DNA of 64,000 bases from an archaeon (GTDB lineage Archaea; Iainarchaeota; Iainarchaeia; Iainarchaeales; JAAZKV01): the NCBI GenBank assembly GCA_041650735.1, contig JBAZKP010000001.1:163076-227075 (forward strand), given 5' to 3'. Numbering within the stretch: the stretch's first letter is position 1; the number at the start of each line of letters is the position of its first letter. This document shows, one piece after another, positions 4,265 to 58,247 of this stretch. A model generated the notes under the pieces. The model was not told the DNA's origin. It saw only the letters and a list, made by a program, of their open reading frames with translations, and did not search any database. Both the position numbers and the translations under genes were made by a program.

Positions 4265-5260
4265 ATGACGCCCTCTTATTTTAGAAGTGCTTTTATGACA
4301 GAAATGGAACTCCCTTGGGTAGAAAAATACAGACCGCATGGACTGAAAGAAGTTGTTGGTCATGATGAAATAACCCATCGATTAAAAAGTTACGTGGAAA
4401 AAAGAAATATGCCGAACATGCTTTTCGCCGGACCCGCAGGAACAGGAAAAACAAGCTCAAGCATTGCACTTGCACGCGAATTATTCGGTGCAAACTTTGA
4501 ACAAAATTTTCTTGAACTAAACGCATCCGATGACCGAGGAATAGATGTTGTCAGAAATACAATAAAAGATTTCGCACGAACACTAGCATTTGACTCAGGA
4601 TTCAAAATAATTTTTCTTGACGAATGCGATGCCCTGACAACAGATGCCCAGCAAGCGCTAAGAAGAACAATGGAAAAATACACAAAAACATGCCGATTTA
4701 TTTTATCATGCAACTATTCTTCAAAAATACTTGAACCAATCCAAAGCAGATGCGTTGTATACAGATTCAAACCCTTGGGCGCAAAAGATATTGATAAACA
4801 AATTAACCACATAGCAGAAAAAGAAAAACTCCAAGTAGATGAAAAAGCAAAAATTGCCATAAATTATGTTTCACAAGGAGATTTAAGAAAAGCAACAAAT
4901 GTTTTACAAGCAGCTGCCTCCCTTGACAAAAAAATTACTGAAGAAATTGTTTACAACGTATCAAGCAGGGCAAGGCCTGAACAAGTACAAGAAATGATTA
5001 TTCTAGCATTAAAAGGAAAATTCCTTGAAGCAAGAAAAAAACTTGAAGAACTAATGTACGAACAAGGAATGAGCGGAGAAGATATTGTAATGCAGGTATA
5101 CAGGGAAACAATGAACCTTGATGAAAAAGAAATATCTGAAAAACAAAAAATTGAATTAGTTGATACTATAGGAGAATACGATTTTAGAATAGTTGAAGGG
5201 GCAAACGAAAGAATACAATTAGAAGCTTTGTTAGCACAGTTTATGAAATACAAAAAGTGA
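4265..5260 (+). CDS. rfcS: Replication factor C small subunit
   Basis: PWVEKYRP box, Walker [10 protein letters not shown], Walker B FLDECD, sensor SRC. The true start may be the ATG at 4295 (MTEMELPW). Confidence 0.9.
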
Positions 5261-6283: not shown

Positions 6284-6365
6284 GAAATAATTTCTAAGGA
6301 TAAATAAAAATTAATTTCTAACAACATGCAGGAAATTAATTTTTTCAATAATAAGTAATACTTTT

Positions 6366-7637
6366 TCAAAACCACTGATTAATTCTTGTCTGTGATTTAA
6401 AATAAGTTATTAAAGCAGATTTCTTTTTGTACTGCTCAATAGGCACAGTTAGTTTTTTTGATAAAAAATCAAGCGCAAGATCAAAGTTGGAAAATTCTAA
6501 TGGTTTTTCTTTTAACGCAGCACGCACATTCTCTCTAATCTGCCACACCCCAAGAGGAACCGCATAATCTTTCCCAATTTCCCTAAAAACAATCGCAGCA
6601 GCATTAAGTTTTTTCCCATCCAAGTACTCAACAATAGCCAAACGGGAAGCAAAATATGCTCCCTCAGTTTCCTCAGGATAACCCTTTAACCCTGCATTTA
6701 ATTCATAATCCGCCCCAATAGTATACTTTGTTGCGCCCTGTGTCCAAATTCCTCCTGGAAGCCAGCACTCTATTTGTTCAAAACTCCAAGGATAAGGCAT
6801 CAACAAAACCCAAAAATCATTATCAAGGTATTTAGAGTGAAATAACTTAAAACAATCAATAACCTTGTTTTGCGGAAGCCTCTCTTCAATAAAAAATTTT
6901 GAAATATTTGAGTCAACAGCAGTAATACTCCATCTTGTTGGAACAAGTTTCCTGTTCTTTTTTACTCCAAGAGCTCCTGAAGAAAGGACTTTTGCTAAAG
7001 TAGAAACAGGAAAACCTTTTTTGAACAAATCAATTAACGCAGTATTTGATTTAACCGCAGTATCAGAAACATAATAATCAATTTCTTTAGGAATTTTAGG
7101 ATTCTCAATCATCTGTAATTTATCAAGCTTTGCTGAAGGACCTAATGGGGCGGAGAAAGAATCAAAAGAAGTTTCGCTTCTAGGTTTCTCTGCAAGCTTA
7201 ACCTCAAGTTCAAACAAATTAGAAGCCATAGCAACTTCTTGAAACTCCATTAACTCATAATTAGGATTAGAGGCAAGCGAAACAGGAATTGTTTTATAAC
7301 TCCTCAGTAAAGATTCGCGAAAAGAAATTATTTGCTCCTGAGGCAACCCATACCATTTCTCAGGCAAATCACTCATCTCACTAACCTCATTAGGAAGAGC
7401 TGAAAGCGGAGCAACCGCAACTTTCGGATAATTCTGCCAAGAAACAAAAAAACCAGGAGGAGAAGCACCAACAAAATCCGTTCCAACCATAGAAGAAACA
7501 ATTTTTGTGCTACTAAACTGCTTCTCAAGAATAGGGCACTTAGACAAGCCACACAAAAGCTTACCCTTACACTTAATACACAATTCAGGAGAAATCACAA
7601 AACCAACTTCAAAAACAAAAGTATTAATGTTCTTCAA
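6366..7637 (-). CDS. Nre-like archaeal DNA-repair-associated protein (DUF650/DUF651-type), tentative
   Basis: N-terminal Cys cluster CIKCKGKLLCGLSKCP and a ~420-aa size fit my recollection of archaeal Nre proteins. Not verifiable here. Confidence 0.45.
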   Translation of the reverse strand: MKNINTFVFEVGFVISPELCIKCKGKLLCGLSKCPILEKQFSSTKIVSSMVGTDFVGASPPGFFVSWQNYPKVAVAPLSALPNEVSEMSDLPEKWYGLPQEQIISFRESLLRSYKTIPVSLASNPNYELMEFQEVAMASNLFELEVKLAEKPRSETSFDSFSAPLGPSAKLDKLQMIENPKIPKEIDYYVSDTAVKSNTALIDLFKKGFPVSTLAKVLSSGALGVKKNRKLVPTRWSITAVDSNISKFFIEERLPQNKVIDCFKLFHSKYLDNDFWVLLMPYPWSFEQIECWLPGGIWTQGATKYTIGADYELNAGLKGYPEETEGAYFASRLAIVEYLDGKKLNAAAIVFREIGKDYAVPLGVWQIRENVRAALKEKPLEFSNFDLALDFLSKKLTVPIEQYKKKSALITYFKSQTRINQWF

Positions 7638-7729
7638 ATTAATAAGTCTAATGTGTTTTAACCATAAAAGTCAGGGCAAAGAATACCTTTTTATTTCAGT
7701 GAGTCATTTAATTGTTGAAGTGAATGTAA

Positions 7730-8098
7730 ATGAGTTTTGGCGATTTTGCTAGAGAAGCTAAGAAAAACACTCCTCAAAGAATACCATCAGGAAAACCTGA
7801 GAACCTTGTTGAAGCAGCAGAAAGCCAACCAGCACAAAAAAAAGATATTTCTTACAAAGACTCTGAAATCAAGGGATTCGTGCCACAACAAAGAACCAGC
7901 ATGTCAAGAAAAAATATTGATTCAAGATGCGGAAGCATAATAAGAAACATTGCTTCAGAATCAAACATACGCTCCCAAACAGGGGGAGAAGCAACATGGG
8001 AAGAATGCAGGCACAGAAAAAACAGTAATGGCAGAGATTTCTGCTCAGAATACCATTCATTATGCGCAAAAGAAAATTGCCGAAAAGCGCGAAAATAA
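7730..8098 (+). CDS. Hypothetical protein with C-terminal four-Cys motif (paralog A)
   Basis: 122 aa with a charged, probably disordered N-terminal part. C-terminus reads WEECRHRKNSNGRDFCSEYHSLCAKENC, shared with the next gene. Confidence 0.55.
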   Translation: MSFGDFAREAKKNTPQRIPSGKPENLVEAAESQPAQKKDISYKDSEIKGFVPQQRTSMSRKNIDSRCGSIIRNIASESNIRSQTGGEATWEECRHRKNSNGRDFCSEYHSLCAKENCRKARK

Positions 8099-35887: not shown

Positions 35888-35933
35888 AACACCAAAATTA
35901 CTTCATAAAAAACTATTTACTTGCATTACAAAG

Positions 35934-36022
35934 CGGGCCTGGAGGGAATCGAACCCCCATCCCGAGATATCTTCTTTTTTAAAGCCGAAGTCTCGTCGCT
36001 TGATCCATTGGCACACAGGCCC
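35934..36022 (-). tRNA. tRNA-Arg(UCG) with 16-nt intron at canonical 37/38 position
   Basis: Hand fold: acceptor GGGCCUG/CAGGCCC, D arm UGCC-AAUGGAUCA-AGCG, anticodon stem CGAGA/UCUCG, loop CUUCGG[intron]A, T arm GGGGG-UUCGAUU-CCCUC, discriminator G. Intron is 35969-35984. BHB: 4-bp helix CUUC/GAAG flanked by the 3-nt bulges GGC and AUA. No encoded CCA. Confidence 0.8.
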
Positions 36023-36651: not shown

Positions 36652-38700
36652 ATGATAACCTCTCTAACTCTGAAAAACTGGCGCACACACAAAGAAACCA
36701 CGCTCGAATTTGGAAAAGGCACAAACGTAATAGTAGGAGTAATGGGTTCAGGAAAAAGCTCAATAGTTAACGCAATAAGCTATTCTCTATTCGGTACATT
36801 CCCTTCACTCAAAAACAAAAGCGTCACACTCAAAGAAATAATAATGAACAAACCAAACCAGGAAAACAATACAGAAACAAAACTTTTATTTGAAACAGAA
36901 GAAAAAAAATTCAAAGTAGAAAGAATCATAAAACTTGATGGCACAAATGAGGCAAAACTATACGAAGGAACAAGGCTTATCGCAGGACCAAAACAAAAAG
37001 ATGTTAATGAAAAAGTGGAAAAAATCCTTGGGTTAAATTATGAATTATTCAGCAGAGCGGTATATGCTGAACAAAACGAGCTGGATTTTTTTCTAAAATT
37101 ATCTCCTTCAGAGAGGAAAAAAAAATTTGATGAACTCCTGGAAATCCAAAAATATGAGGAAGCCAGAAAAAATTCAATTTCACTGCAAAATGAACTTATA
37201 AAAACAAACAAACAAAGCAAAGAATTCATAGAACAACAAAAAGAAACCATCAAAAGCCACGAAGAAGAAAAACTGGAAAAAATGCTTCAAGAAGAAGAAA
37301 AAATAATCCTTGAACTTGAAAAAGAAATTACTGCAACAAAAAATGAAATTCAACTGGTGGAAAAAGAGTTTAACGAACTAGCAGAAAAAGAAAAACAAAG
37401 CAAAATACTGGAAGAACTTGTCGTAAAAATGAAATCACGAATAGAAACCTTAAAAGAAGATGCTGCAAAAAGCGAAAAACTGTCACTCAAAGAAATTGCC
37501 GCTGAAATCGAAAAAACACTAAAAGAAATAACCCAATTAAATGAAAAAATCCGTCTAAAAGAAGAGGAAAGCAAAACCCTTGACACAGAAATCAAAAAGA
37601 ACGGGGAAGAACTCAGCGTAATGCAATACAAAGAAAAGAAATTTACTCAAGAAGAAAAAGAAATAAACTCTCTAAAAGGGGAATGTCCCACATGCAAACG
37701 CGAGTTGGATGAAAAACATAAAAAAGAGCTTATTGCAAAAATAATTGGAAAAAAAGAAAAAATAACAGAAGAAGAAAAAATACTTGCTGAAAAAAACAAA
37801 AAACTCTGTGAAAAAATAGGAGCTGTTAAAAAAGAAAATGAAATAATGAAAAAAGAAAATGATGAAAAAAAAAGGAACTTGTACAAATTAGAGGCTACAC
37901 AAAAACAGGTTTTTGAATTTGAGAACAAGAAAAAACAATTAATTATGCTGGAAGAAGAACTGCCAAAAATAAAAAAACAGCTTGAGGAAATGGGTTTTGA
38001 CAAGAAAAAACTTGATATTGTACGTGAACAAATATACAAGAAAAAATCAGCAATCAGTGTAGCTGAAACAAAAATCAAATCAAAACAAGAACTGAGGAAA
38101 AGTTATGAAAATACACTGCAAAAAATACTTCAAATAAAGAAAAACATGAACGAAATGGAAAAAGAAATCCTAAAAACAGAGGAAGCTGCGAAAAAAATGG
38201 GGGTATTTGCGAACTGCCTGATTGCAACCCAAGTTGAACTAAGAGAATCAATGCTTGAAACAACAAACCAGGCAATGACCAGCATCTGGCAGACCATATA
38301 CCCTTACAAGGATTTTACTGATGCAAAACTATGCGTGGTTGAAGAAGGATATGATTTACAGGTAAAAACACGGAACAACGGATGGGTAAGAGTAGAAGGA
38401 GTATTATCCGGAGGAGAAAGAAGCGCAGCGGCACTATGCATAAGAATAGCATTCGCACTTGTTTTGACTAAAAAACTTTCAATGCTAATACTTGATGAAC
38501 CTACACATAACTTAGATACAAACGCTGTATCAAAATTAAGTGAAATGCTGCGCGAAGAACTGCCAAAAATTGTTGAACAAATCTTTGTGATAACACACGA
38601 CAAACAATTAGAGAACGCAGCATCAAGCAACCTGTATTTGCTGGCAAGAAACAAGGATGAAGACGGGGCAACACAAAGCGAAAACATACAAGCTTACTAA
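36652..38700 (+). CDS. rad50: Rad50 DNA double-strand break repair ATPase
   Basis: N-terminal LKNWRTHKETTLEFGKGTNVIVGVMGSGKSS, central Zn hook GECPTCKREL within coiled coil, signature LSGGERS, Walker B LILDEPT, D-loop/H-loop FVITHD. Confidence 0.88.
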   Translation: MITSLTLKNWRTHKETTLEFGKGTNVIVGVMGSGKSSIVNAISYSLFGTFPSLKNKSVTLKEIIMNKPNQENNTETKLLFETEEKKFKVERIIKLDGTNEAKLYEGTRLIAGPKQKDVNEKVEKILGLNYELFSRAVYAEQNELDFFLKLSPSERKKKFDELLEIQKYEEARKNSISLQNELIKTNKQSKEFIEQQKETIKSHEEEKLEKMLQEEEKIILELEKEITATKNEIQLVEKEFNELAEKEKQSKILEELVVKMKSRIETLKEDAAKSEKLSLKEIAAEIEKTLKEITQLNEKIRLKEEESKTLDTEIKKNGEELSVMQYKEKKFTQEEKEINSLKGECPTCKRELDEKHKKELIAKIIGKKEKITEEEKILAEKNKKLCEKIGAVKKENEIMKKENDEKKRNLYKLEATQKQVFEFENKKKQLIMLEEELPKIKKQLEEMGFDKKKLDIVREQIYKKKSAISVAETKIKSKQELRKSYENTLQKILQIKKNMNEMEKEILKTEEAAKKMGVFANCLIATQVELRESMLETTNQAMTSIWQTIYPYKDFTDAKLCVVEEGYDLQVKTRNNGWVRVEGVLSGGERSAAALCIRIAFALVLTKKLSMLILDEPTHNLDTNAVSKLSEMLREELPKIVEQIFVITHDKQLENAASSNLYLLARNKDEDGATQSENIQAY

Positions 38701-39172: not shown

Positions 39173-39281
39173 CAAACCCACCAGAATACATAACTCTCGT
39201 AAAGCAACCTTTAAAAAAGTAGGGTTTAGGCTTGCAAAACACATGCAAAGTATTTTAAGAATAAAAGCCCGAATCCTAATC

Positions 39282-39746
39282 ATGGCAAAAATAATGACCC
39301 TGGGGTTTATCCTCAAAAACGAGGACATACTGTTAGGAATGAAGAAAAGAGGCTTTGGGGCAGGAAGATGGAATGGCTTCGGCGGAAAATTACACGAAGA
39401 AGAAACAATAGAACAAGCACTAATACGCGAATTTAAAGAAGAATGTGAAATAAAAATAACAAAAAGCAAAAAACTTGGGATAATTAATTTTGAGTTCAAA
39501 GGAAAACCAGAAGTACTTGAAGTCCATATCTTCAAAATCCTTGAATATGAAGGAGAACCAAAAGAAACAGAAGAAATGAAGCCACAATGGTTCAAAACCA
39601 GTCAAATACCTTATGAATCAATGTGGTCAGATGACCCCTACTGGATGCCATTATTCCTAAAAGAAAAAAAATTTATTGGACACATTTTGTTTGATGAAAA
39701 AGAACAAGTGCTGAAATCTGAAATAAAAGAAACGGATAAAATTTAG
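39282..39746 (+). CDS. NUDIX hydrolase, MutT/MTH1-like
   Basis: GRWNGFGGKLHEEETIEQALIREFKEECEI Nudix box. C-terminal PYWMPLFL block resembles MTH1. The ORF track starts at 39243. Confidence 0.78.
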   Translation: MAKIMTLGFILKNEDILLGMKKRGFGAGRWNGFGGKLHEEETIEQALIREFKEECEIKITKSKKLGIINFEFKGKPEVLEVHIFKILEYEGEPKETEEMKPQWFKTSQIPYESMWSDDPYWMPLFLKEKKFIGHILFDEKEQVLKSEIKETDKI

Positions 39747-39749
39747 GGT

Positions 39750-41366
39750 TCAGGCAAAAGCCCGGTAAGTTTTCTTTTGAACTGACTTAAAAGAAACAAT
39801 TTCCGGCTGAGGAAGCTTTGTTTGCTCTGAAAAATCCTTGGCAAGCTTCAAAGAAGAAAACCCTTTTACTGAAGCAAAACTCTTACCCGCATGCAGAACA
39901 CGATAACCATTTTTTTCTGAAAATTCTTTGAACTTTGCAATAGTTGCTTCTTGAACAGAAACAATGTTTTTTGCCAAAGAAGTTGAAAAAAACTTTGAAT
40001 TAGAATTCGTTAACTGAGAAGGAAGCTCGGACAAAACCTGGGAAAGCACAGAATACATCGCTTTTGAATAAAAATAACCAAAACTCTTCTGTGAAACAAA
40101 ATCTTTTTCAAAAAAATCAATAACCTTACGAAAAGCAAATAATTTATTATTAGCCAAGCGAACCTCCTTTGAAAAAAAACTCTCTTTATTCAAGCAAAAC
40201 CAGTTAAGTTCATGAACAGAAACAGGAATTGAATTATTATCAGCTAAAGAAGAATTCTTGCTTTGAAGAACCTGTTTTGAAGAAACAAGAACCGCTTTTT
40301 CCCCTTCAACCAAGCGTTTTGCATCCATCAAAGGAACCAACGCAAAATCATCCCTAAAAAAAGGGCCAACAGGAAAAGAATTCAGGAAAAACTCTTTTCT
40401 TTTTGAAACACGCTGGTCCTTAAAAGGCATTGAATTGTGAAAATTCATTGCAAAGTTAGAGGAAGATGATTCAAAAAACAAATTATCCTCCTTAAACTGA
40501 ATCTTAATCATGGAAGAAGGCAACAAATTTCTTGCATCAAGCACAACAGGGGAACAACAAGAACAATTCTTTGTTTCAGGACCAATATTGAAAAAAGTAT
40601 TTGAAAATAGTTCCGCCCAAACAAGAGAAAAATCAATTTTTGAAGTAGCATCATATGAAAAAGGAGAATAATCTTTTTCTGAAAAAAACTTTTCGCCGGA
40701 ATCGAAAGAAAGCATTTCCCCGTGCTTGAAAAAAACGTTCTCTAAAAATAACTCAACACGCTCTTCTTTAGTTAAAGGAATTTTTTCTATGGGGAGAGAA
40801 AGAACCTCAGACCAAGCTGCTTGTTCAACCAAAAACAAAGAATCCTGCTCACTTAACCTCAAGGCTTGGGGAAAAGAAATTTCTTTAATAAGAAAAAAAC
40901 TAAGATCTTTAGGAGAAGAACCTTGAGGGTTATGGCTAGTATTAACCATTAAGAAACCTTGTTGTTCAAAAGAATCAAAATAACTCCAATTTCTTTCCAA
41001 TAAAAATGCTCTTTGTGGTTCAAGCACCAAAGGCTTTTTGTTCAAATACAGGGAAAGCGCATTACTGATTTTTTTTAATTCAGCAAAAGAAGAAGCGTGA
41101 AGATACAAAAGATTATTTTTTTCAGAAATATTAAAACCTTTAAAACCAAGGGAAAGAATTAATTCAATTAATTTCTCACTTGAAATGGAAGAAGAAAACA
41201 AAGCAAGAGGGTAAAACTTGTACCTTTTAACAACCCGCTCCCCCTTATTTGAAAACTCAGTAAGTATCTCTGCCTTTGGCTCATTATAAGAAACCCTTGT
41301 TAGATAAATGGGTTTATTCGCAACGCTAACCGCTTGTGCGGAGCTAACCATGCTGTGTTGAGGCAT
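39750..41366 (-). CDS. Truncated, probably catalytically inactive family-B DNA-polymerase-like protein
   Basis: Motif-level similarity to Pyrococcus-type PolB. N-terminal YKFYPLALF and LEPQRAFLLERNW. Motif A region IDFSLVWAELFSNTFFNIGPET. Motif B KSFGYFYSKAMYS. Motif C EKNGYRVLHAGKSFA, where DTD is replaced by GKS. No recognisable exonuclease motifs, and the protein ends ~35 aa after motif C. Confidence 0.45.
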   Translation of the reverse strand: MPQHSMVSSAQAVSVANKPIYLTRVSYNEPKAEILTEFSNKGERVVKRYKFYPLALFSSSISSEKLIELILSLGFKGFNISEKNNLLYLHASSFAELKKISNALSLYLNKKPLVLEPQRAFLLERNWSYFDSFEQQGFLMVNTSHNPQGSSPKDLSFFLIKEISFPQALRLSEQDSLFLVEQAAWSEVLSLPIEKIPLTKEERVELFLENVFFKHGEMLSFDSGEKFFSEKDYSPFSYDATSKIDFSLVWAELFSNTFFNIGPETKNCSCCSPVVLDARNLLPSSMIKIQFKEDNLFFESSSSNFAMNFHNSMPFKDQRVSKRKEFFLNSFPVGPFFRDDFALVPLMDAKRLVEGEKAVLVSSKQVLQSKNSSLADNNSIPVSVHELNWFCLNKESFFSKEVRLANNKLFAFRKVIDFFEKDFVSQKSFGYFYSKAMYSVLSQVLSELPSQLTNSNSKFFSTSLAKNIVSVQEATIAKFKEFSEKNGYRVLHAGKSFASVKGFSSLKLAKDFSEQTKLPQPEIVSFKSVQKKTYRAFA

Positions 41367-41434: not shown

Positions 41435-42967
41435 TTACAAAAAGGCTTCAACATCTTTTTCTTTTTCCTCTTTATCAGACTGGAAGGCTCTTGCGGAGTC
41501 CTCTAAAGTTGTTTCATGCCTGCTAGGGGCAGAAGAACGCAAACGAACCTTAAAAAAAGTAGGAGCATTAACAGCTTCCCCAACAACAAGAGCTTCTCCT
41601 ACCCTAAGAGAAGAAATTATTCCCATACTTGAATTATCCAACCCTTCACAGGATTCAGAAATATGCTTCAAGTCATAAGGATTGGTTACACGCAAAATAA
41701 TATTTGTATTACAATTCGCCAAAGTGGTTGTATCAAGGCGCTTAGGCCTCTGTGAAATAACAACAAGAGAAGCACCAAACTTTCTGCCCTCCCTTGCAAT
41801 TGTACGCAAATAGGATCTGGCAACAGCATGCTCTGCAGCAATCCCTTCAGGAACAAAATTGTGCGCCTCTTCCACAAACAAAGCAAAAGGAGGAATCCTT
41901 TTTGAATGCCCTCTCCGCTCATGAAACAATTTATTTGAAATATAAGCAACAAGAACCTGCTTCTTTTTTTCAGAAATAACTGAATTCAAATCAATTACAA
42001 GCAACTGGCCGGGCTTGACAAAATCAACTATTGCAGGCTCATCAATTTTTCCAAACAAACCAAGGTCCTCTAATTCTGAAACAATTCCATGCAAAGAAGC
42101 AGCAGTTTTTTCATTATCAATATTCTGTATCTCAGCTCTTACCGCGCTCAAATCAAAAGGACCAGCACCTGATTTCATTTCAGCTGATAATTTAGAAAGA
42201 ACTTTCCCTAATTCACGCTTCTGATTAGGCGATAAGTCCACAATAGAAGAAACCATGTAAATACTCATTTTTGAGCAAGCAATCCTTATTTTTGAGCCGT
42301 CAATTATTTTTGTTTTAGAAGAAAAATCCTGAAACGCGGAGCCCTGTTTAACAGGTTCACCAAAACAAGAATACTCACCATGGGTATCAAAAACAACTAC
42401 CCCAATCTGTCCCTGCTCTTTCTTCCTGCTCAAAAGCTCTTCAAGCAAAACACTCACAAAATAACTCTTGCCTGCACCACTAGTGGCAATAATTGCCAAG
42501 TGTTTCTGCAAAAGCTTTGACAAATTTGCTTTCAACTCAACATCATGAAACTGAAGCTTTCCAAGATTCAAACCATCAGACTGCAAACCAAGAAACTTTT
42601 TTATCCTCTCATTATCAGCGTTAAAAACTTTTGTCCCTGGAGAAGGCGGAAAAGTTGGCCTTTGAATTAATTTTTCTGTAAAAACCCCAAGAGGCCTTGC
42701 TTTTGCAATAAGGAATTCCCACTCAGCAGCAGGAAAATTCTTTTCAAGCTCCTCCCCAATAATTTTCACTGAATCAGGACGCTCAAAATAACGATTCGTC
42801 TTAATTACATCCTCAACAAGCAACATCATAGTGCCTTCAGAGTACTCAAGCTCCACAAACATTCCCTTATGCGCCTTACCATTATTCACAACAAAAGCAA
42901 CAGTGCTCGGCGAAGGGCCATCCATAGTAGAAACAATTGTTCCTAACTGTTCATGCATAAAAATCAT
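41435..42967 (-). CDS. herA: HerA-type hexameric DNA translocase/helicase (DUF87 ATPase)
   Basis: Walker A ATSGAGKSYFVSVLLEELL, VVFDTHGEY, Walker B LFVEEAHNFVP, LVVISQRP. Confidence 0.88.
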   Translation of the reverse strand: MIFMHEQLGTIVSTMDGPSPSTVAFVVNNGKAHKGMFVELEYSEGTMMLLVEDVIKTNRYFERPDSVKIIGEELEKNFPAAEWEFLIAKARPLGVFTEKLIQRPTFPPSPGTKVFNADNERIKKFLGLQSDGLNLGKLQFHDVELKANLSKLLQKHLAIIATSGAGKSYFVSVLLEELLSRKKEQGQIGVVVFDTHGEYSCFGEPVKQGSAFQDFSSKTKIIDGSKIRIACSKMSIYMVSSIVDLSPNQKRELGKVLSKLSAEMKSGAGPFDLSAVRAEIQNIDNEKTAASLHGIVSELEDLGLFGKIDEPAIVDFVKPGQLLVIDLNSVISEKKKQVLVAYISNKLFHERRGHSKRIPPFALFVEEAHNFVPEGIAAEHAVARSYLRTIAREGRKFGASLVVISQRPKRLDTTTLANCNTNIILRVTNPYDLKHISESCEGLDNSSMGIISSLRVGEALVVGEAVNAPTFFKVRLRSSAPSRHETTLEDSARAFQSDKEEKEKDVEAFL

Positions 42968-43200
42968 TTCCTTGATTTGATAACTAATTTTCTCGGTACA
43001 CCCAATTCTTTTCTTAATTCTAAAAAACTTCCAATATGGGCTGTGCGCTTCAACACATTTGAGGATTTGCTCCTTTTAGAAGCCTCTCTTAAAGTTTTTC
43101 TTGCCCGCAAATTAACTATACGCGCATTCTCAATAATTTTTTCATTCTCCGACATTGGAAGAAAACTAGGACGCTTTGGCCTAACTCTTTTTATTTGCAT
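42964..43200 (-). CDS. Small basic protein translationally coupled to herA, possible HTH
   Basis: Its stop overlaps the herA start (ATGA at 42964-42967). The C-terminal LELRKELGVPRKLV looks HTH-like. The start is uncertain: 43200 overlaps the HAD gene, and an alternative ATG lies at 43155. Confidence 0.35.
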   Translation of the reverse strand: MQIKRVRPKRPSFLPMSENEKIIENARIVNLRARKTLREASKRSKSSNVLKRTAHIGSFLELRKELGVPRKLVIKSRK

Positions 43201-43867
43201 TCAAACCACCCAAAACCCTGTACAATTCATCCAGAGACTTTATCTCAAACTCTGGCTTTGCATTCGCATAATCAATTACTTTACCCAAACGATTTATTAG
43301 GCAATTGTGCATCCTTACTTTTTGAGAACCAATAATATCGGAACGCAAAGAATCACCAACCATTAAAGCTTCATCTGGTTTTATTTTGAACTCCTTTAAT
43401 ACAGGCAGGAAAGATTCTGTATCAGGCTTAACGAAGCCAATATCAAAACTATAAAAAACTGTATCAAAATAATTACTAATATTCAAGGAAGACTCTATTT
43501 TTGCTGCAGCAATGCTTTCGTTATTTGAAAGCAAAACAAGCTTATAACCCTGTTTTTTCAGCTTCAATAAATTTTTTTCAACATCAGGAAAAAACCTTAT
43601 TTTATCCATCCTGTTTCCGTAAACTTCGGCAAGCTCCTGCTCAAGCACAACATTATCCCCTTGGTTAAATGTCTTGAAAAAATCCTTCCTTAATTCCTCA
43701 AAAGAAGAATACTTTTTCAGCTGAACCCCTTTCTCATACTTCTCAATAAACCTAGGCAAAGACAACCCCTCCTTCCTTGTCAAAGCAGACAAGTGAACAA
43801 AATCAATTGTTGCAGGAATAAGAGTATTCCACAAATCAAAAACAATTACCTTAATCATACAAATCAC
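43181..43867 (-). CDS. HAD-superfamily hydrolase
   Basis: Motif I VIVFDLWNTLI, motif II LLSNNE, motif IV VGDSLRSD. Confidence 0.65.
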   Translation of the reverse strand: MICMIKVIVFDLWNTLIPATIDFVHLSALTRKEGLSLPRFIEKYEKGVQLKKYSSFEELRKDFFKTFNQGDNVVLEQELAEVYGNRMDKIRFFPDVEKNLLKLKKQGYKLVLLSNNESIAAAKIESSLNISNYFDTVFYSFDIGFVKPDTESFLPVLKEFKIKPDEALMVGDSLRSDIIGSQKVRMHNCLINRLGKVIDYANAKPEFEIKSLDELYRVLGGLNANKKS

Positions 43868-43878
43868 TAAAAATCAAA

Positions 43879-44958
43879 TTAATTAAAAGGCCTATTATTC
43901 CTCCTCATCCTTACTTTCCCACCCAGCTTATCCACAAGCCTATCATAAACAACACTTATTTCCTGCTCATTCAGCCCCGCACGCAAATCTGCTTCAATCA
44001 AAACACTGGGAAAAGAATATTCTTTATGCAAAGAACTCAAAGAACAAACAATTCCTGAAATATCTTCAGCACAATTATGAATCTCTTTTGCGTTTTTGCA
44101 CAAAAACTCAACACGCAATGGTTTGTCATACAAAGAACATTTTAAATAAAAAACAAAAATACTTTCAGCCCAAGCCTTATCATAATCCTTCAAAATAGCA
44201 TGACTGGAAATATTATTTGTATAAGGAAACGCAAAAGTCCTTTCACCCTGCGCAAGATAATAATCCAAAAGAGAAGCATCAAAGGAACCTGCAAGCAAAG
44301 AAGGATTAATCTGCATTTTGCTTTTAGGAAGAATTTCTTCCTGCAAAAGCTGGCGAAACCTTGTGCCGCGGGAATCCTCAACGCACGCAACAAGAGAACA
44401 AGCATTTTCCTCCGCTGTTTTGTAAAGCTTCTGGAATAATTTCAAAATTGATTCATATTCCTCATTAATCCCTGAATCTTTTCTCGGCTTATCCTGATAC
44501 TGGGGAACAATTGAACCATCAATGAACAAATAATCAGGCTTAAATTTTTTTATTAACTCAATTGAGCAAGAAACCTCTTGCTCCAATCTAACCAAGGAAA
44601 CACTTTGCTGTTCTTCATCCTTTTCTAATCCAGAACGAAGAATAACCGGCTCAGGAAAAGAAAAAGGAGCAGGAAAATACTTTGTCTCAGACAACACCCC
44701 ATTTTTATATTTGAAAAAAACGCCCGCAGTTTTAATTAAAACAAGGTCAATAAAAGAAAGTTTTTTTGAAACAAACCCAGAATCAACGCCCGCAACAGAA
44801 CAAGACAAAAGCTTCTTCTCAATAGGAACAACAATCTCTTCAAAACCATTAGGGGAAAGAGAAGACTTCAAAGGAGCCAATAATGAAGAAAGCCTGTCAT
44901 TAAAGGAATTCCTTTCATTAATAGCAAAAACTGCTTTCTCAAAAAAACTATTAAACAC
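43879..44958 (-). CDS. nurA: NurA 5'-3' nuclease
   Basis: NurA-type acidic motifs AGVDSG, RLEQE and YLFIDGSIVP. ~360 aa. Sits in an operon with herA. Confidence 0.8.
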   Translation of the reverse strand: MFNSFFEKAVFAINERNSFNDRLSSLLAPLKSSLSPNGFEEIVVPIEKKLLSCSVAGVDSGFVSKKLSFIDLVLIKTAGVFFKYKNGVLSETKYFPAPFSFPEPVILRSGLEKDEEQQSVSLVRLEQEVSCSIELIKKFKPDYLFIDGSIVPQYQDKPRKDSGINEEYESILKLFQKLYKTAEENACSLVACVEDSRGTRFRQLLQEEILPKSKMQINPSLLAGSFDASLLDYYLAQGERTFAFPYTNNISSHAILKDYDKAWAESIFVFYLKCSLYDKPLRVEFLCKNAKEIHNCAEDISGIVCSLSSLHKEYSFPSVLIEADLRAGLNEQEISVVYDRLVDKLGGKVRMRRNNRPFN

Positions 44959-56601: not shown

Positions 56602-57240
56602 TCAAAACAAAACTTTGTCAAGCAAAGGTTTTATTTGCCCAAAAACATCAGGAATGGGTTTATTTGCATCAATAATATGAATATTCTCATTAGGCAACAA
56701 TTTCGGCAACTGCAAATAATATTTTCTTAAATTTTTTACAAAATCAAGTTGCCTAAAATTATCTGTTTGCTTTCTTTTCTCAGAAACCTCAGAATTAATT
56801 CTCCTCACAGCTTCTTCAGGATTAACATCAAAAATCAAAGCAAGATTAGGCGCTAAAAAACCCTTGTTAGCATTAAAAACCTCGTTGAAATCACTGCCCT
56901 GGACTGTTTGATAAGCAATACTCCCATACTTGTATCTGTCAGCAAGAACAACAAAATTTTTTTCCAAAGCGGGAGCAATAATATTTTCTATATGCCATGC
57001 TCTGTCATCAATAAAAGCTTGAAAAATTTCCTCAGCCAAATCATTAGGGGCCTTCTGTTTTTTAAAAAGCTCACGAACCTTTAAACCAAAAGGACCATTA
57101 GTTGGCTCATCAGTCACAAGAATATTATCATACTTCTTACTCTTACCATAAATATATTCAAAGCTTTTCCTAATCATGGTTCCTTTGCCAGAACCGGGGC
57201 CGCCATCAAAAGCAATAAAAGTTCCCGCCATAAAACTCAC
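56602..57240 (-). CDS. Thymidylate-kinase-like nucleotide kinase (second paralog)
   Basis: P-loop FDGGPGSGKGT and DRYKYGSIAYQ (DRY-type motif). Divergent lid region. Confidence 0.6.
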   Translation of the reverse strand: MSFMAGTFIAFDGGPGSGKGTMIRKSFEYIYGKSKKYDNILVTDEPTNGPFGLKVRELFKKQKAPNDLAEEIFQAFIDDRAWHIENIIAPALEKNFVVLADRYKYGSIAYQTVQGSDFNEVFNANKGFLAPNLALIFDVNPEEAVRRINSEVSEKRKQTDNFRQLDFVKNLRKYYLQLPKLLPNENIHIIDANKPIPDVFGQIKPLLDKVLF

Positions 57241-57248
57241 TAAAAAAA

Positions 57249-57926
57249 TTATTTTACCAAAACTTTTTTAACTTCACTCCAAATTAATTCATGAATCTCA
57301 TTAATAGGTTTCAAGGCATTAGCTCTTACACAATCAATTTTTTTCCAACCCAAACGCTCAATATTCCTATCATACTCTTTCATAAAAGAACGCTGAAAAT
57401 CTAAATCTAACTCATGCTGGTCACGCTTAGCACCCTTCTTATAACTCTCAGCCCTATTAGCATTATCAAGCAGTTTCTCTGAAACATCAACAGGAACATA
57501 AAGAACAAAAACAGAATCCGGCTGAGGCAATCTTTCACACACCTGCTTAATCCACGCCCAAACAGAATCCCTCTGCTCTTTAGGAGTTAAAGCTGTTTGA
57601 TAACAAAGAGTAGAAGAAAAATATCTTGAAAGAATAACAAAAGAACCTTCATTAAGAATTTTTTCTATCTCCCACTTAGATTCATAAAAATCAGTCATGT
57701 AAAGCATAGCAACAAATTCAGGAGGAATAGAGGCTTTATCTCCATACTCGCCACGCAAATAAGCATCAACAACCTTTCCAAAAGAAACCTCATGCTTTGG
57801 AAAATGCAAATGAACAACTTTTTTTCCCTCTTTTTCCAAGCGCTCGGCTAAAAGTTTTAATTGAGTACTCTTACCAGAAGACTCACCACCCTCTAGAACA
57901 ATTAATTTACCCCTCATAAAAACCAA
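57249..57926 (-). CDS. tmk: Thymidylate kinase
   Basis: P-loop LEGGESSGKSTQ and SRYFSSTLCYQ. Overall Tmk length and layout. Confidence 0.78.
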   Translation of the reverse strand: MVFMRGKLIVLEGGESSGKSTQLKLLAERLEKEGKKVVHLHFPKHEVSFGKVVDAYLRGEYGDKASIPPEFVAMLYMTDFYESKWEIEKILNEGSFVILSRYFSSTLCYQTALTPKEQRDSVWAWIKQVCERLPQPDSVFVLYVPVDVSEKLLDNANRAESYKKGAKRDQHELDLDFQRSFMKEYDRNIERLGWKKIDCVRANALKPINEIHELIWSEVKKVLVK

Positions 57927-58095: not shown

Positions 58096-58247
58096 GCGTC
58101 TGTGATGTAATGGTAGCATAAAAGCCTTCCATCGGCCTTACTAAGGCCGGCGAAAGTATTTGCCCTTTCTACGAAAGGACAGAAAACTACGATGGTTGAA
58201 AAATCAAATGCTAGCTTTTTGTCGGGGTTCAAATCCCCGCGGGCGCA
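58096..58247 (+). tRNA. tRNA-Gly(UCC) with 81-nt intron (boundaries inferred)
   Basis: Hand fold: acceptor GCGUCUG/CGGGCGC (two G-U pairs), D arm AUGU-AAUGGUA-GCAU, anticodon stem AAAGC/GCUUU, loop CUUCCA[intron]A, T arm CGGGG-UUCAAAU-CCCCG, discriminator A. Intron taken as 58132-58212. The central BHB helix is poor (2 of 4 pairs). Confidence 0.75.

Follow-up and report, generated by a model that had tools for sequence, protein, structure and literature searches.

Why should a gene for what looks like part of a family B DNA polymerase (PolB) stand directly behind herA in an archaeal genome? The question is raised by a 64,000-nucleotide stretch of contig JBAZKP010000001.1 (GenBank assembly GCA_041650735.1, positions 163,076 to 227,075 of the forward strand) from an archaeon of the Iainarchaeota; this whole stretch is referred to below as the window. 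The gene, which we designate X, occupies positions 39750 to 41366 on the minus strand, starts with ATG, and ends with a stop codon at positions 39750 to 39752. Its 538-aa product is identified by the open reading frame (ORF) list, profile searches, an AlphaFold2 (AF2) model, and Foldseek as a PolB-derived pseudo-polymerase. A preliminary description of the window, made from the sequence alone, had compared this product with PolB at the level of short motifs. Our results indicate that X is a pseudoenzyme of polymerase descent whose architecture and genomic association are both new, and we give somewhat better than even odds, roughly 55%, to the reading that it is a non-catalytic subunit of the HerA-NurA end-resection machinery.

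Relationship of X to family B DNA polymerases

No family was matched by X in Pfam (E ≤ 1) or NCBIfam (E ≤ 10), a search of the PDB with the single sequence was also empty, and none of the X homologs carries a precomputed Pfam domain. When profiles of the X family were compared with all PDB sequences, the best matches were family B polymerases, namely PolB of Pyrobaculum calidifontis (5mdn) and Pol II of Escherichia coli; the E value of the 5mdn match went from 0.009 with a profile of 31 sequences to 8e-4 with one of 113 sequences. The profile matches consist of two colinear blocks, one at motif A and one running from motif B to motif C. Pol alpha was matched at chance level only (E of about 1.1 to 1.2). 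An hhalign comparison of the X family with PolB of Pyrococcus furiosus (Pfu), whose reference sequence was confirmed to be that of PDB 3a2f_A over residues 1 to 775, aligned residues 182 to 276 of X with residues 330 to 434 of Pfu (p = 2.7e-4).

An AF2 model of X built from the family alignment reached a predicted local distance difference test (pLDDT) score of 84.1 and a predicted template modeling (pTM) score of 0.82. Foldseek found 231 matches to this model in the PDB at E ≤ 1e-3. The top 50 were all family B polymerases, the best with E = 7e-11, probability 1.0, and a template modeling (TM) score of 0.49 when normalized to the query. Profiles, hhalign, and the AF2 model with Foldseek thus agree with the motif-level resemblance first proposed; the failure of profile or structure searches to find PolB homology, which the preliminary description had put forward as the contrary outcome, did not occur. 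As judged from profiles and the model, X has a PolB fold made up of an N-terminal domain, a palm, and fingers. No dependable tree can be built, given how little X resembles any PolB in sequence.

Domain anatomy of X

The anatomy of X was built from the secondary structure of the model, the profile alignments, and landmark positions in Pfu. The PolB-type N-terminal domain (residues about 20 to 125; positions 40992 to 41309, on the minus strand like all segments of X given below) is a beta-rich fold in the model and contains the segments YKFYPLALF (residues 49 to 57) and LEPQRAFL (residues 115 to 122). Twelve of its columns are at least 80% conserved, including F51, P53, P117, R119, F121, and L122. 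Two segments of this domain, YKFYPLALF and LEPQRAFLLERNW (residues 115 to 127), had been paired with Pfu-type PolB in the preliminary description. Their positions do correspond to Pfu residues 34 to 42 and 113 to 126, and F51, P53, R119, F121, and L122 fall in conserved columns; equivalence residue by residue is presumed.

At the site of the exonuclease domain, X has a remnant or linker (residues 126 to 164; 40875 to 40991), delimited by its spacing relative to Pfu and partly of low confidence in the model (residues 147 to 149). From R119 to the motif A Asp there are 126 aa in X (D245) versus 286 aa in Pfu (D405), and the approximately 160 residues missing from X are the exonuclease core, where Pfu has Exo I at 140, Exo II at 210, and Exo III at 311. 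None of the three Exo motifs is found in X, as had been reported before. The pre-palm helices and the motif A strand follow (residues 165 to 267; 40566 to 40874), located by the hhalign alignment with Pfu and by an hmmsearch alignment to 5mdn residues 352 to 438. Motif A of X begins at residue 244 and reads IDFSLVW. It is aligned with LDFRALYPS such that D245 takes the place of Pfu D405, the placement originally suggested, and the SLYPS sequence is not kept.

A Cys triad, C268-S-C270-C271 (40554 to 40565, translating to CSCC), then forms the N-terminal foot of an insert in the palm (residues 272 to 384; 40215 to 40553), which comprises a conserved core (274 to 360) and a variable, low-complexity linker (361 to 384). 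The C-terminal foot of the insert, HELNWFC(391)LNKES (40179 to 40214; translation checked), supplies a fourth Cys. The fingers (residues 397 to 453; 40008 to 40178) appear in the model as two long helices, 397 to 421 and 429 to 453. Their motif B equivalent, QVLSELPSQ (443 to 451), is degenerate, and the alignments pair it with the motif B sequences of 5mdn, Pol II, and Pol2, with AKARWY set against NSKFF. The preliminary description had located motif B at KSFGYFYSKAMYS (427 to 439), which has to be corrected: the hidden Markov model alignments all shift it by about 16 residues toward the C terminus, within that helix of the fingers.

The C-terminal palm (residues 454 to 538; 39753 to 40007), aligned to 5mdn residues 520 to 581, has a helix that leads into the motif C hairpin; a single helix and a single strand come next, and there the protein ends. 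Where motif C should read D-T-D, X has G494-K495-S496 (39879 to 39887); the translation gives GKS, just as first noticed. The segment YRVLHAGKSFA is aligned with (I/V)xV(I/L)YxDTDSxF, and in the family profile alignment "yrvlhankk" stands against IEVIYGDTD. The tail after motif C comprises 42 aa in X versus 232 aa in Pfu, so that X has neither the KxY motif (at 592 in Pfu) nor any part of the thumb. The absence of a thumb had been recognized from the outset, albeit with a tail of about 35 aa. In total, X has 538 aa versus about 775 aa for archaeal enzymes of the PolB1/PolB3 type.

Loss of the polymerase active site

Conservation was counted across 113 diverse aligned members of the X family. 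At motif C, a DxD triplet occurs in none of the 113, about 100 different triplets are found there, and the hairpin as a whole holds no conserved acidic residue. In motif B, the family varies where active polymerases have Lys, Asn, Tyr, and Gly, and at the motif A site of D245, 84 members have Asp. No column reaches 80% conservation in the fingers, the helix preceding motif C, the motif C hairpin, or the C-terminal palm, whereas 20 columns do so in the Cys triad, the insert, and the C391 segment. The alignment shows that the metal- and deoxynucleoside triphosphate-binding residues of motifs B and C are no longer selected for. By this conservation pattern, the X family is a family of pseudo-polymerases, having a PolB fold without PolB chemistry. 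Together, the alignment and the model show that X descends from a family B DNA polymerase and is catalytically dead.

Extent of the X family

A large protein collection contained 71 clear homologs of X, all of them "hypothetical" and 466 to 594 aa long except for one fragment of 313 aa; the named sources among the 71 are archaea of the Diapherotrites/Iainarchaeota type. The family comprises at least 232 representative clusters, the number that an exhaustive profile search gave at E ≤ 1e-3; with the stricter limit of E ≤ 1e-10, 166 remained. Because no Pfam or NCBIfam model exists, hundreds of these proteins are annotated just as hypothetical. In a scan of one genome per GTDB species, 62 loci with intact ORFs were found, down to 27% identity, and nearly all are labeled Candidatus Iainarchaeum, "ainarchaeum," Forterrea, or unclassified archaeon. 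The X family was found only in Iainarchaeota-type metagenome-assembled genomes, and X is conserved in every Iainarchaeota-type genome recovered.

According to the preliminary description, homologs with an intact DTD together with exonuclease and thumb domains would have indicated an assembly or annotation artifact. None were found: besides the lack of DxD at motif C, the 150 representatives listed of the 232 are all at most 546 aa long. The consistent shortness of the relatives therefore makes this a property of the family and not an artifact. An assembly or annotation artifact, or a pseudogene, is ruled out by the 232 clusters, the shortness of all listed members, and the intact ORFs in 62 genomes. 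Stripped of exonuclease domain, thumb, and catalytic carboxylates, the X family is the most reduced PolB derivative for which we found evidence, yet it persists throughout a phylum of the DPANN archaea.

A palm insert with four conserved cysteines

The most conserved and most unusual part of X is the palm insert, which was overlooked in the preliminary description and which holds most of the invariant residues of the family. The spacing from motif A to motif B is 198 aa in X versus 83 aa in Pfu, and the extra 100 to 120 aa (residues 272 to 384) are inserted exactly into a hairpin at whose foot Pfu has C429 and C443. C268, C270, C271, and C391, in a 3+1 arrangement, are each present in 112 of the 113 members, and W389 is present in 108. 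The insert residues conserved at 80% or more are N280, S300, H310, R319, E325, P332, G334, P335, D348, A349, and L352.

Modeled alone, the insert reached a pLDDT of 82. Its best Foldseek match was the B-domain (C-terminal domain) of Gins51 in 5ghr_B (E = 0.06, probability 1.0, root mean square deviation 2.6), with a TM score of 0.70 normalized to the 55-residue target, and GINS subunits made up the majority of its top 50 matches. The profiles matched the Psf2 B-domain weakly in hmmsearch (E = 1.1 to 1.5). When the insert was compared by hhalign with human PSF2, PVGPFF...VPLxDAKxL was aligned over 31 columns (p = 0.029); the GINS B-domain signature used for comparison is a small beta-rich fold with GPF...VP(L/W)xxAxxL. 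As no single match is significant, we regard the resemblance to GINS as suggestive. GINS B-domains are protein-protein interaction modules; in the case of Gins51, one partner is GAN, a RecJ-like nuclease. Compared with PDB sequences by hmmsearch, the insert had chance-level matches only, and Foldseek against viral predicted structures gave no meaningful match.

The insert also has a positional counterpart in eukaryotic Pol epsilon, whose P-domain and CysX [4Fe-4S] "iron staple" are inserted into the palm at the same site as in X, after motif A and before the fingers. In yeast Pol2, the sequence of which was checked against PDB 4m8o, D640 is followed by C665, C668, and C677, then by about 85 aa, and then by C763 (PMC6582351 for the series and the numbering). 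The 3+1 Cys arrangement is common to both proteins, C763 of Pol2 being followed by QRENPFYV and C391 of X by LNKESFFS; between the Cys groups X has about 100 to 120 aa, compared with the roughly 85 aa of Pol2. Pol epsilon differs from X in being an active, full-length enzyme. A comparison of the full X profile with a profile of 45 Pol epsilon sequences by hhalign gave a weak alignment (p = 0.037) that places WFC391 on IVC763 and runs on through the fingers and motif B.

The insert profile showed no similarity to the Pol epsilon profile (p = 0.61), a single-sequence comparison was also without signal, and Pol epsilon is absent from the top 50 fold matches of the insert. A common origin of the insert and the P-domain of Pol epsilon was dropped as a candidate since no insert signal was obtained with either the single sequence or the 45-sequence profile. 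With no signal at the level of the insert, the parallel is treated as positional, that is, as either convergent or too diverged to detect. In the published view, CysX and the P-domain are confined to Pol epsilon (PMC6582351). If the 3+1 Cys staple of X binds an Fe-S cluster, it would be an archaeal counterpart of this module, and this raises the question of whether a Cys-stapled palm insertion, thought to be a specialty of Pol epsilon, is recurrent in archaea as well.

Gene order around X in the Iainarchaeota

In the window, X lies on the same strand as herA (41435 to 42967, minus strand; 510 aa; PF01935, E = 1.6e-28), which is directly 5' of it across an intergenic gap of 68 nt, in agreement with the placement immediately downstream of herA reported initially. 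Farther upstream are a gene for a phosphatase/hydrolase of the HAD family (43181 to 43867, minus strand; PF00702, E = 7e-26), flanked by nurA and herA, and nurA itself (43879 to 44958, minus strand; 359 aa; PF09376, E = 5.3e-10), the first gene of the cluster. Downstream and convergent with X is rad50 (36652 to 38700, plus strand; 682 aa), with SMC_N, AAA_23, and Rad50 zinc hook domains, separated from X by a gene for ribosomal protein S17e and a NUDIX gene.

The recurrence of such genes after herA in DPANN genomes, a survey suggested with the first description, was assessed in the Iainarchaeota with the 62 species-level loci, of which 54 are informative, having herA as well as X. Without exception, herA of these 54 loci precedes X on the same strand, even where the identity of X is down to 27 to 30%. 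The gap between the two genes is shorter than 300 nt in 24 loci, 300 to 1000 nt in 16, and 1 to 2.9 kb in 14. As for nurA, 46 loci have it, and 31 of the 54 carry the HAD gene between it and herA. rad50 is present in 54 loci and in 53 of these is downstream and convergent at a distance of 0.1 to 3.2 kb. Eight loci are without herA, seven of which merely end short of the upstream sequence. These data show that X is fixed downstream of herA in a nurA-herA-X/rad50 neighborhood. The searchable literature, the coverage of which is incomplete, yielded no PolB-like gene in herA-nurA clusters or in Iainarchaeota, which is in keeping with the earlier remark that the arrangement had not been described.

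No mre11-type phosphoesterase was found in the window and 64 related loci (924 kb), a search that covers the loci around the clusters, not whole genomes, and that was performed with motif-chain regular expressions and by tblastn with Pfu Mre11 (query checked against PDB 1ii7). In a large protein collection, the best 120 matches of Pfu Mre11 were nearly all from Thermococcales or other hyperthermophilic Euryarchaeota and none were from Iainarchaeota, a result that is uninformative. Nothing was found in the literature on Diapherotrites/Iainarchaeota and Mre11. In the window and in the related loci examined, rad50 stands solitary beside the gene for EF-1beta.

Genes lying between herA and X in some other genomes were considered as hidden partners and rejected; those examined look, by eye, unrelated to one another (asparaginase/GatD-like, NUDIX-like, cation-antiporter-like, amidinotransferase-like, and a small basic ORF). 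A small, Arg-rich, very basic ORF of 117 to 130 aa is seen between herA and X in several genomes, at the surveyed locus L001 (9587 to 9976, plus strand) and in similar form in L016, L019, L037, L041, and the P0057 contig; it has no Pfam annotation and is absent from the window.

Comparison with known systems

By fold, X is closest to the archaeal PolB1/PolB3 type (Pyrobaculum calidifontis 5mdn and Pyrococcus furiosus 2jgu/3a2f), with which it shares colinear motifs A to C and, at the same site after motif A, a Cys-flanked hairpin (C429 and C443 in Pfu). It differs in lacking the exonuclease domain, KxY, and thumb, in its degenerate motifs B and C, in its insert, and in having no Pfam PolB match. 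In concept, X comes nearest to PolB2, the "inactivated" archaeal PolBs, and to the inactive module of Pol epsilon. PolB2 keeps an exonuclease-like domain and a thumb. X lacks these and has a Cys-clamped insert, unlike PolB2. Like X, PolB2 has a disrupted exonuclease site and a non-canonical motif C (Rogozin 2008; Makarova 2014, PMC4104785). It is thought to work in repair with the products of adjoining genes and is linked to inactivated RadA paralogs and arCOG07300, not to herA or nurA (PMC4104785). One motif C Asp is kept, and polymerase activity is measurable (PMC7544198; PMC8764526). Set against this description, X stands apart by its nurA-HAD-herA-X context, by the lack of a RadA-like gene, and by having no conserved motif C Asp.

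A further precedent is found in eukaryotic Pol epsilon, whose C-terminal PolB module is inactive (Tahirov 2009, PMC2669801); there a PolB fold serves purely as a scaffold after the loss of catalysis, as we propose for X. That module is fused, lies outside any herA-nurA context, and has other insertions, whereas X is a free-standing protein. Inactive polymerase homologs acting as scaffolds are thus already known from PolB2 and from the C-terminal half of Pol epsilon, and each has revealed how a replication or repair machine is wired. As for the genes around it, the X loci resemble the canonical archaeal herA-mre11-rad50-nurA cluster in that HerA, NurA, and Rad50 are encoded together. They differ in that mre11 is missing nearby, X follows herA, the HAD gene is often between nurA and herA, and rad50 is on the opposite strand.

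Possible role of X at DNA ends

As a non-catalytic subunit, X would act in the HerA-NurA-mediated end resection of double-strand breaks in Iainarchaeota, probably in communication with Rad50. The N-terminal domain, palm, and fingers might provide a grip on single-stranded DNA or on a junction of single- and double-stranded DNA. The Cys-clamped insert may bind Zn or an Fe-S cluster and could present a docking surface for a partner such as HerA, NurA, Rad50, or a nuclease of the RecJ/GAN type. What a bare PolB N-terminal domain with palm and fingers does for HerA-NurA is the question that such a protein raises.

Several observations weigh against a resection subunit. The evidence for the partners is gene order within one phylum. 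Unrelated neighbors (S17e, EF-1beta, IscS/NifU, and Hjc) also keep their order, and part of the adjacency of herA and X may therefore be inherited synteny and not an operon. The gap between herA and X is at least 300 nt in 30 of the 54 genomes, and the gaps examined hold one to three genes without an evident link to DNA repair. In the window, the 68-nt gap contains a TATA-like box, TTTATAA, roughly 30 nt ahead of the X start codon, which may, from its sequence and position, give X a promoter of its own. One locus, L038 (X at 6320 to 7828), has 6.3 kb of upstream sequence with no herA match and genuinely departs from the otherwise universal order. With Asp retained at motif A in 74% of members, some residual metal site is possible. 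Lastly, the insert bears a suggestive resemblance to the GINS B-domain, a match below significance.

This resemblance is one of the grounds for an alternative in which X serves the replisome and not repair: as a scaffold derived from an inactivated PolB, it would hold replication proteins together, much as the inactive PolB module of Pol epsilon does in CMG, with a GINS-B-like insert that binds GAN/RecJ or MCM and an adjacency to herA that is inherited synteny. The best fold matches of the insert are GINS subunits, in particular the Gins51 B-domain, accompanied by the weak sequence matches to Psf2; inactive PolB modules used as scaffolds have precedent (PMC7544198; PMC4104785); the whole 10-kb block is syntenic, translation genes included; and many genomes have intervening genes between herA and X. 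However, the similarity to GINS is not statistically significant, herA keeps its upstream, same-strand position in all 54 informative loci even where the identity of X drops to 27 to 30%, and the replication genes of the window (RFC small subunit and Toprim/DnaG-like) are 10 to 35 kb away and unlinked to X. We therefore judge a replisome scaffold to be unlikely, if still worth bearing in mind. It is more doubtful still that X replaces a lost Mre11, bridging Rad50 with HerA-NurA via its metal-stapled insert. Relative to the canonical gene order, X occupies the slot of mre11 after herA, and the solitary rad50 and the lack of mre11 in the 924 kb around the clusters fit this idea, but mre11 may be encoded elsewhere in the genome, no known Rad50-binding motif was identified in X, and X is without a nuclease-like acidic constellation, the invariant polar residues of the insert being H310, R319, and D348. 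If it were true, a polymerase-derived pseudoenzyme and not a phosphoesterase would couple Rad50 to HerA-NurA at DNA ends. The loci raise the question of whether archaea can operate Rad50, HerA, and NurA without a linked Mre11, or without any.

That X has kept polymerase or nucleotidyl transferase activity at a non-canonical site, in the manner of PolB2/Dpo2 or of a split PolB, seems to us highly improbable. PolB2 was predicted to be inactive and yet is active (PMC8764526; PMC7544198), and the frequent retention of the motif A Asp would be in line with such an activity. Against it stand the motif C hairpin, in which DxD is never found and no acidic residue is conserved, the unconserved Lys, Asn, and Tyr of motif B, the position of the fingers and motif C as the least constrained parts of the protein, and the absence of KxY and of the thumb, with no thumb-like gene adjacent. 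A split polymerase with its thumb encoded elsewhere was rejected because the catalytic positions are unconstrained and no thumb-like gene adjoins X.

Other genes at the X locus and in the window

The NUDIX hydrolase gene downstream of X (39243 to 39746, plus strand) is on the opposite strand and ends 3 nt from the 3' end of X. It abuts X only in the window and its closest relatives (L003 to L008) and is about 7 kb away in L001 and L019. The upstream neighbor of rad50 in the window is the EF-1beta gene, and no mre11 lies beside rad50. The HAD gene at 43181 to 43867 has a sub-threshold match to PNK3P (PF08645, polynucleotide kinase 3'-phosphatase; E = 5e-4, 20.2 bits versus a cutoff of 22), and its product could be a phosphatase that cleans DNA 3' ends and was recruited to a resection operon. 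A basic ORF of 78 aa (42964 to 43200, minus strand) runs from within the end of the HAD gene into the start of herA. Neither Pfam nor a tblastn search of the related loci gave a match to it, and it therefore may not be a real gene.

The window is an ordinary AT-rich segment of an archaeal chromosome (34 to 37% GC). Its genes include those for the RFC small subunit, NreA, ThrRS, ProRS, type IV pilus proteins, ABCE1, Pelota, the CCA-adding enzyme, IscS/NifU, a Toprim/DnaG-like protein, thymidylate kinases, S19e, eIF6, and FtsY. An origin of X as the PolB of a mobile element or casposon was ruled out by this housekeeping region (RFC, aminoacyl-tRNA synthetases, and ribosomal proteins) and by the same position being held phylum-wide. 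The NreA homolog (6366 to 7637, minus strand), which has the Nre_N and Nre_C domains, and the RFC small subunit gene (4265 to 5260, plus strand) are about 35 kb from the cluster; their presence implies that the organism retains other archaeal repair and replication accessory genes. Two thymidylate kinase paralogs (PF02223) adjoin each other at 56602 to 57240 (E = 6e-33) and 57249 to 57926 (E = 3e-25), both on the minus strand. Rfam calls a tRNA of 152 nt at 58096 to 58247 (plus strand), which is not reported by ARAGORN, and tRNA-Arg(TCG) at 35933 to 36022 (minus strand) measures 90 nt. Both are probably intron-containing archaeal tRNAs.

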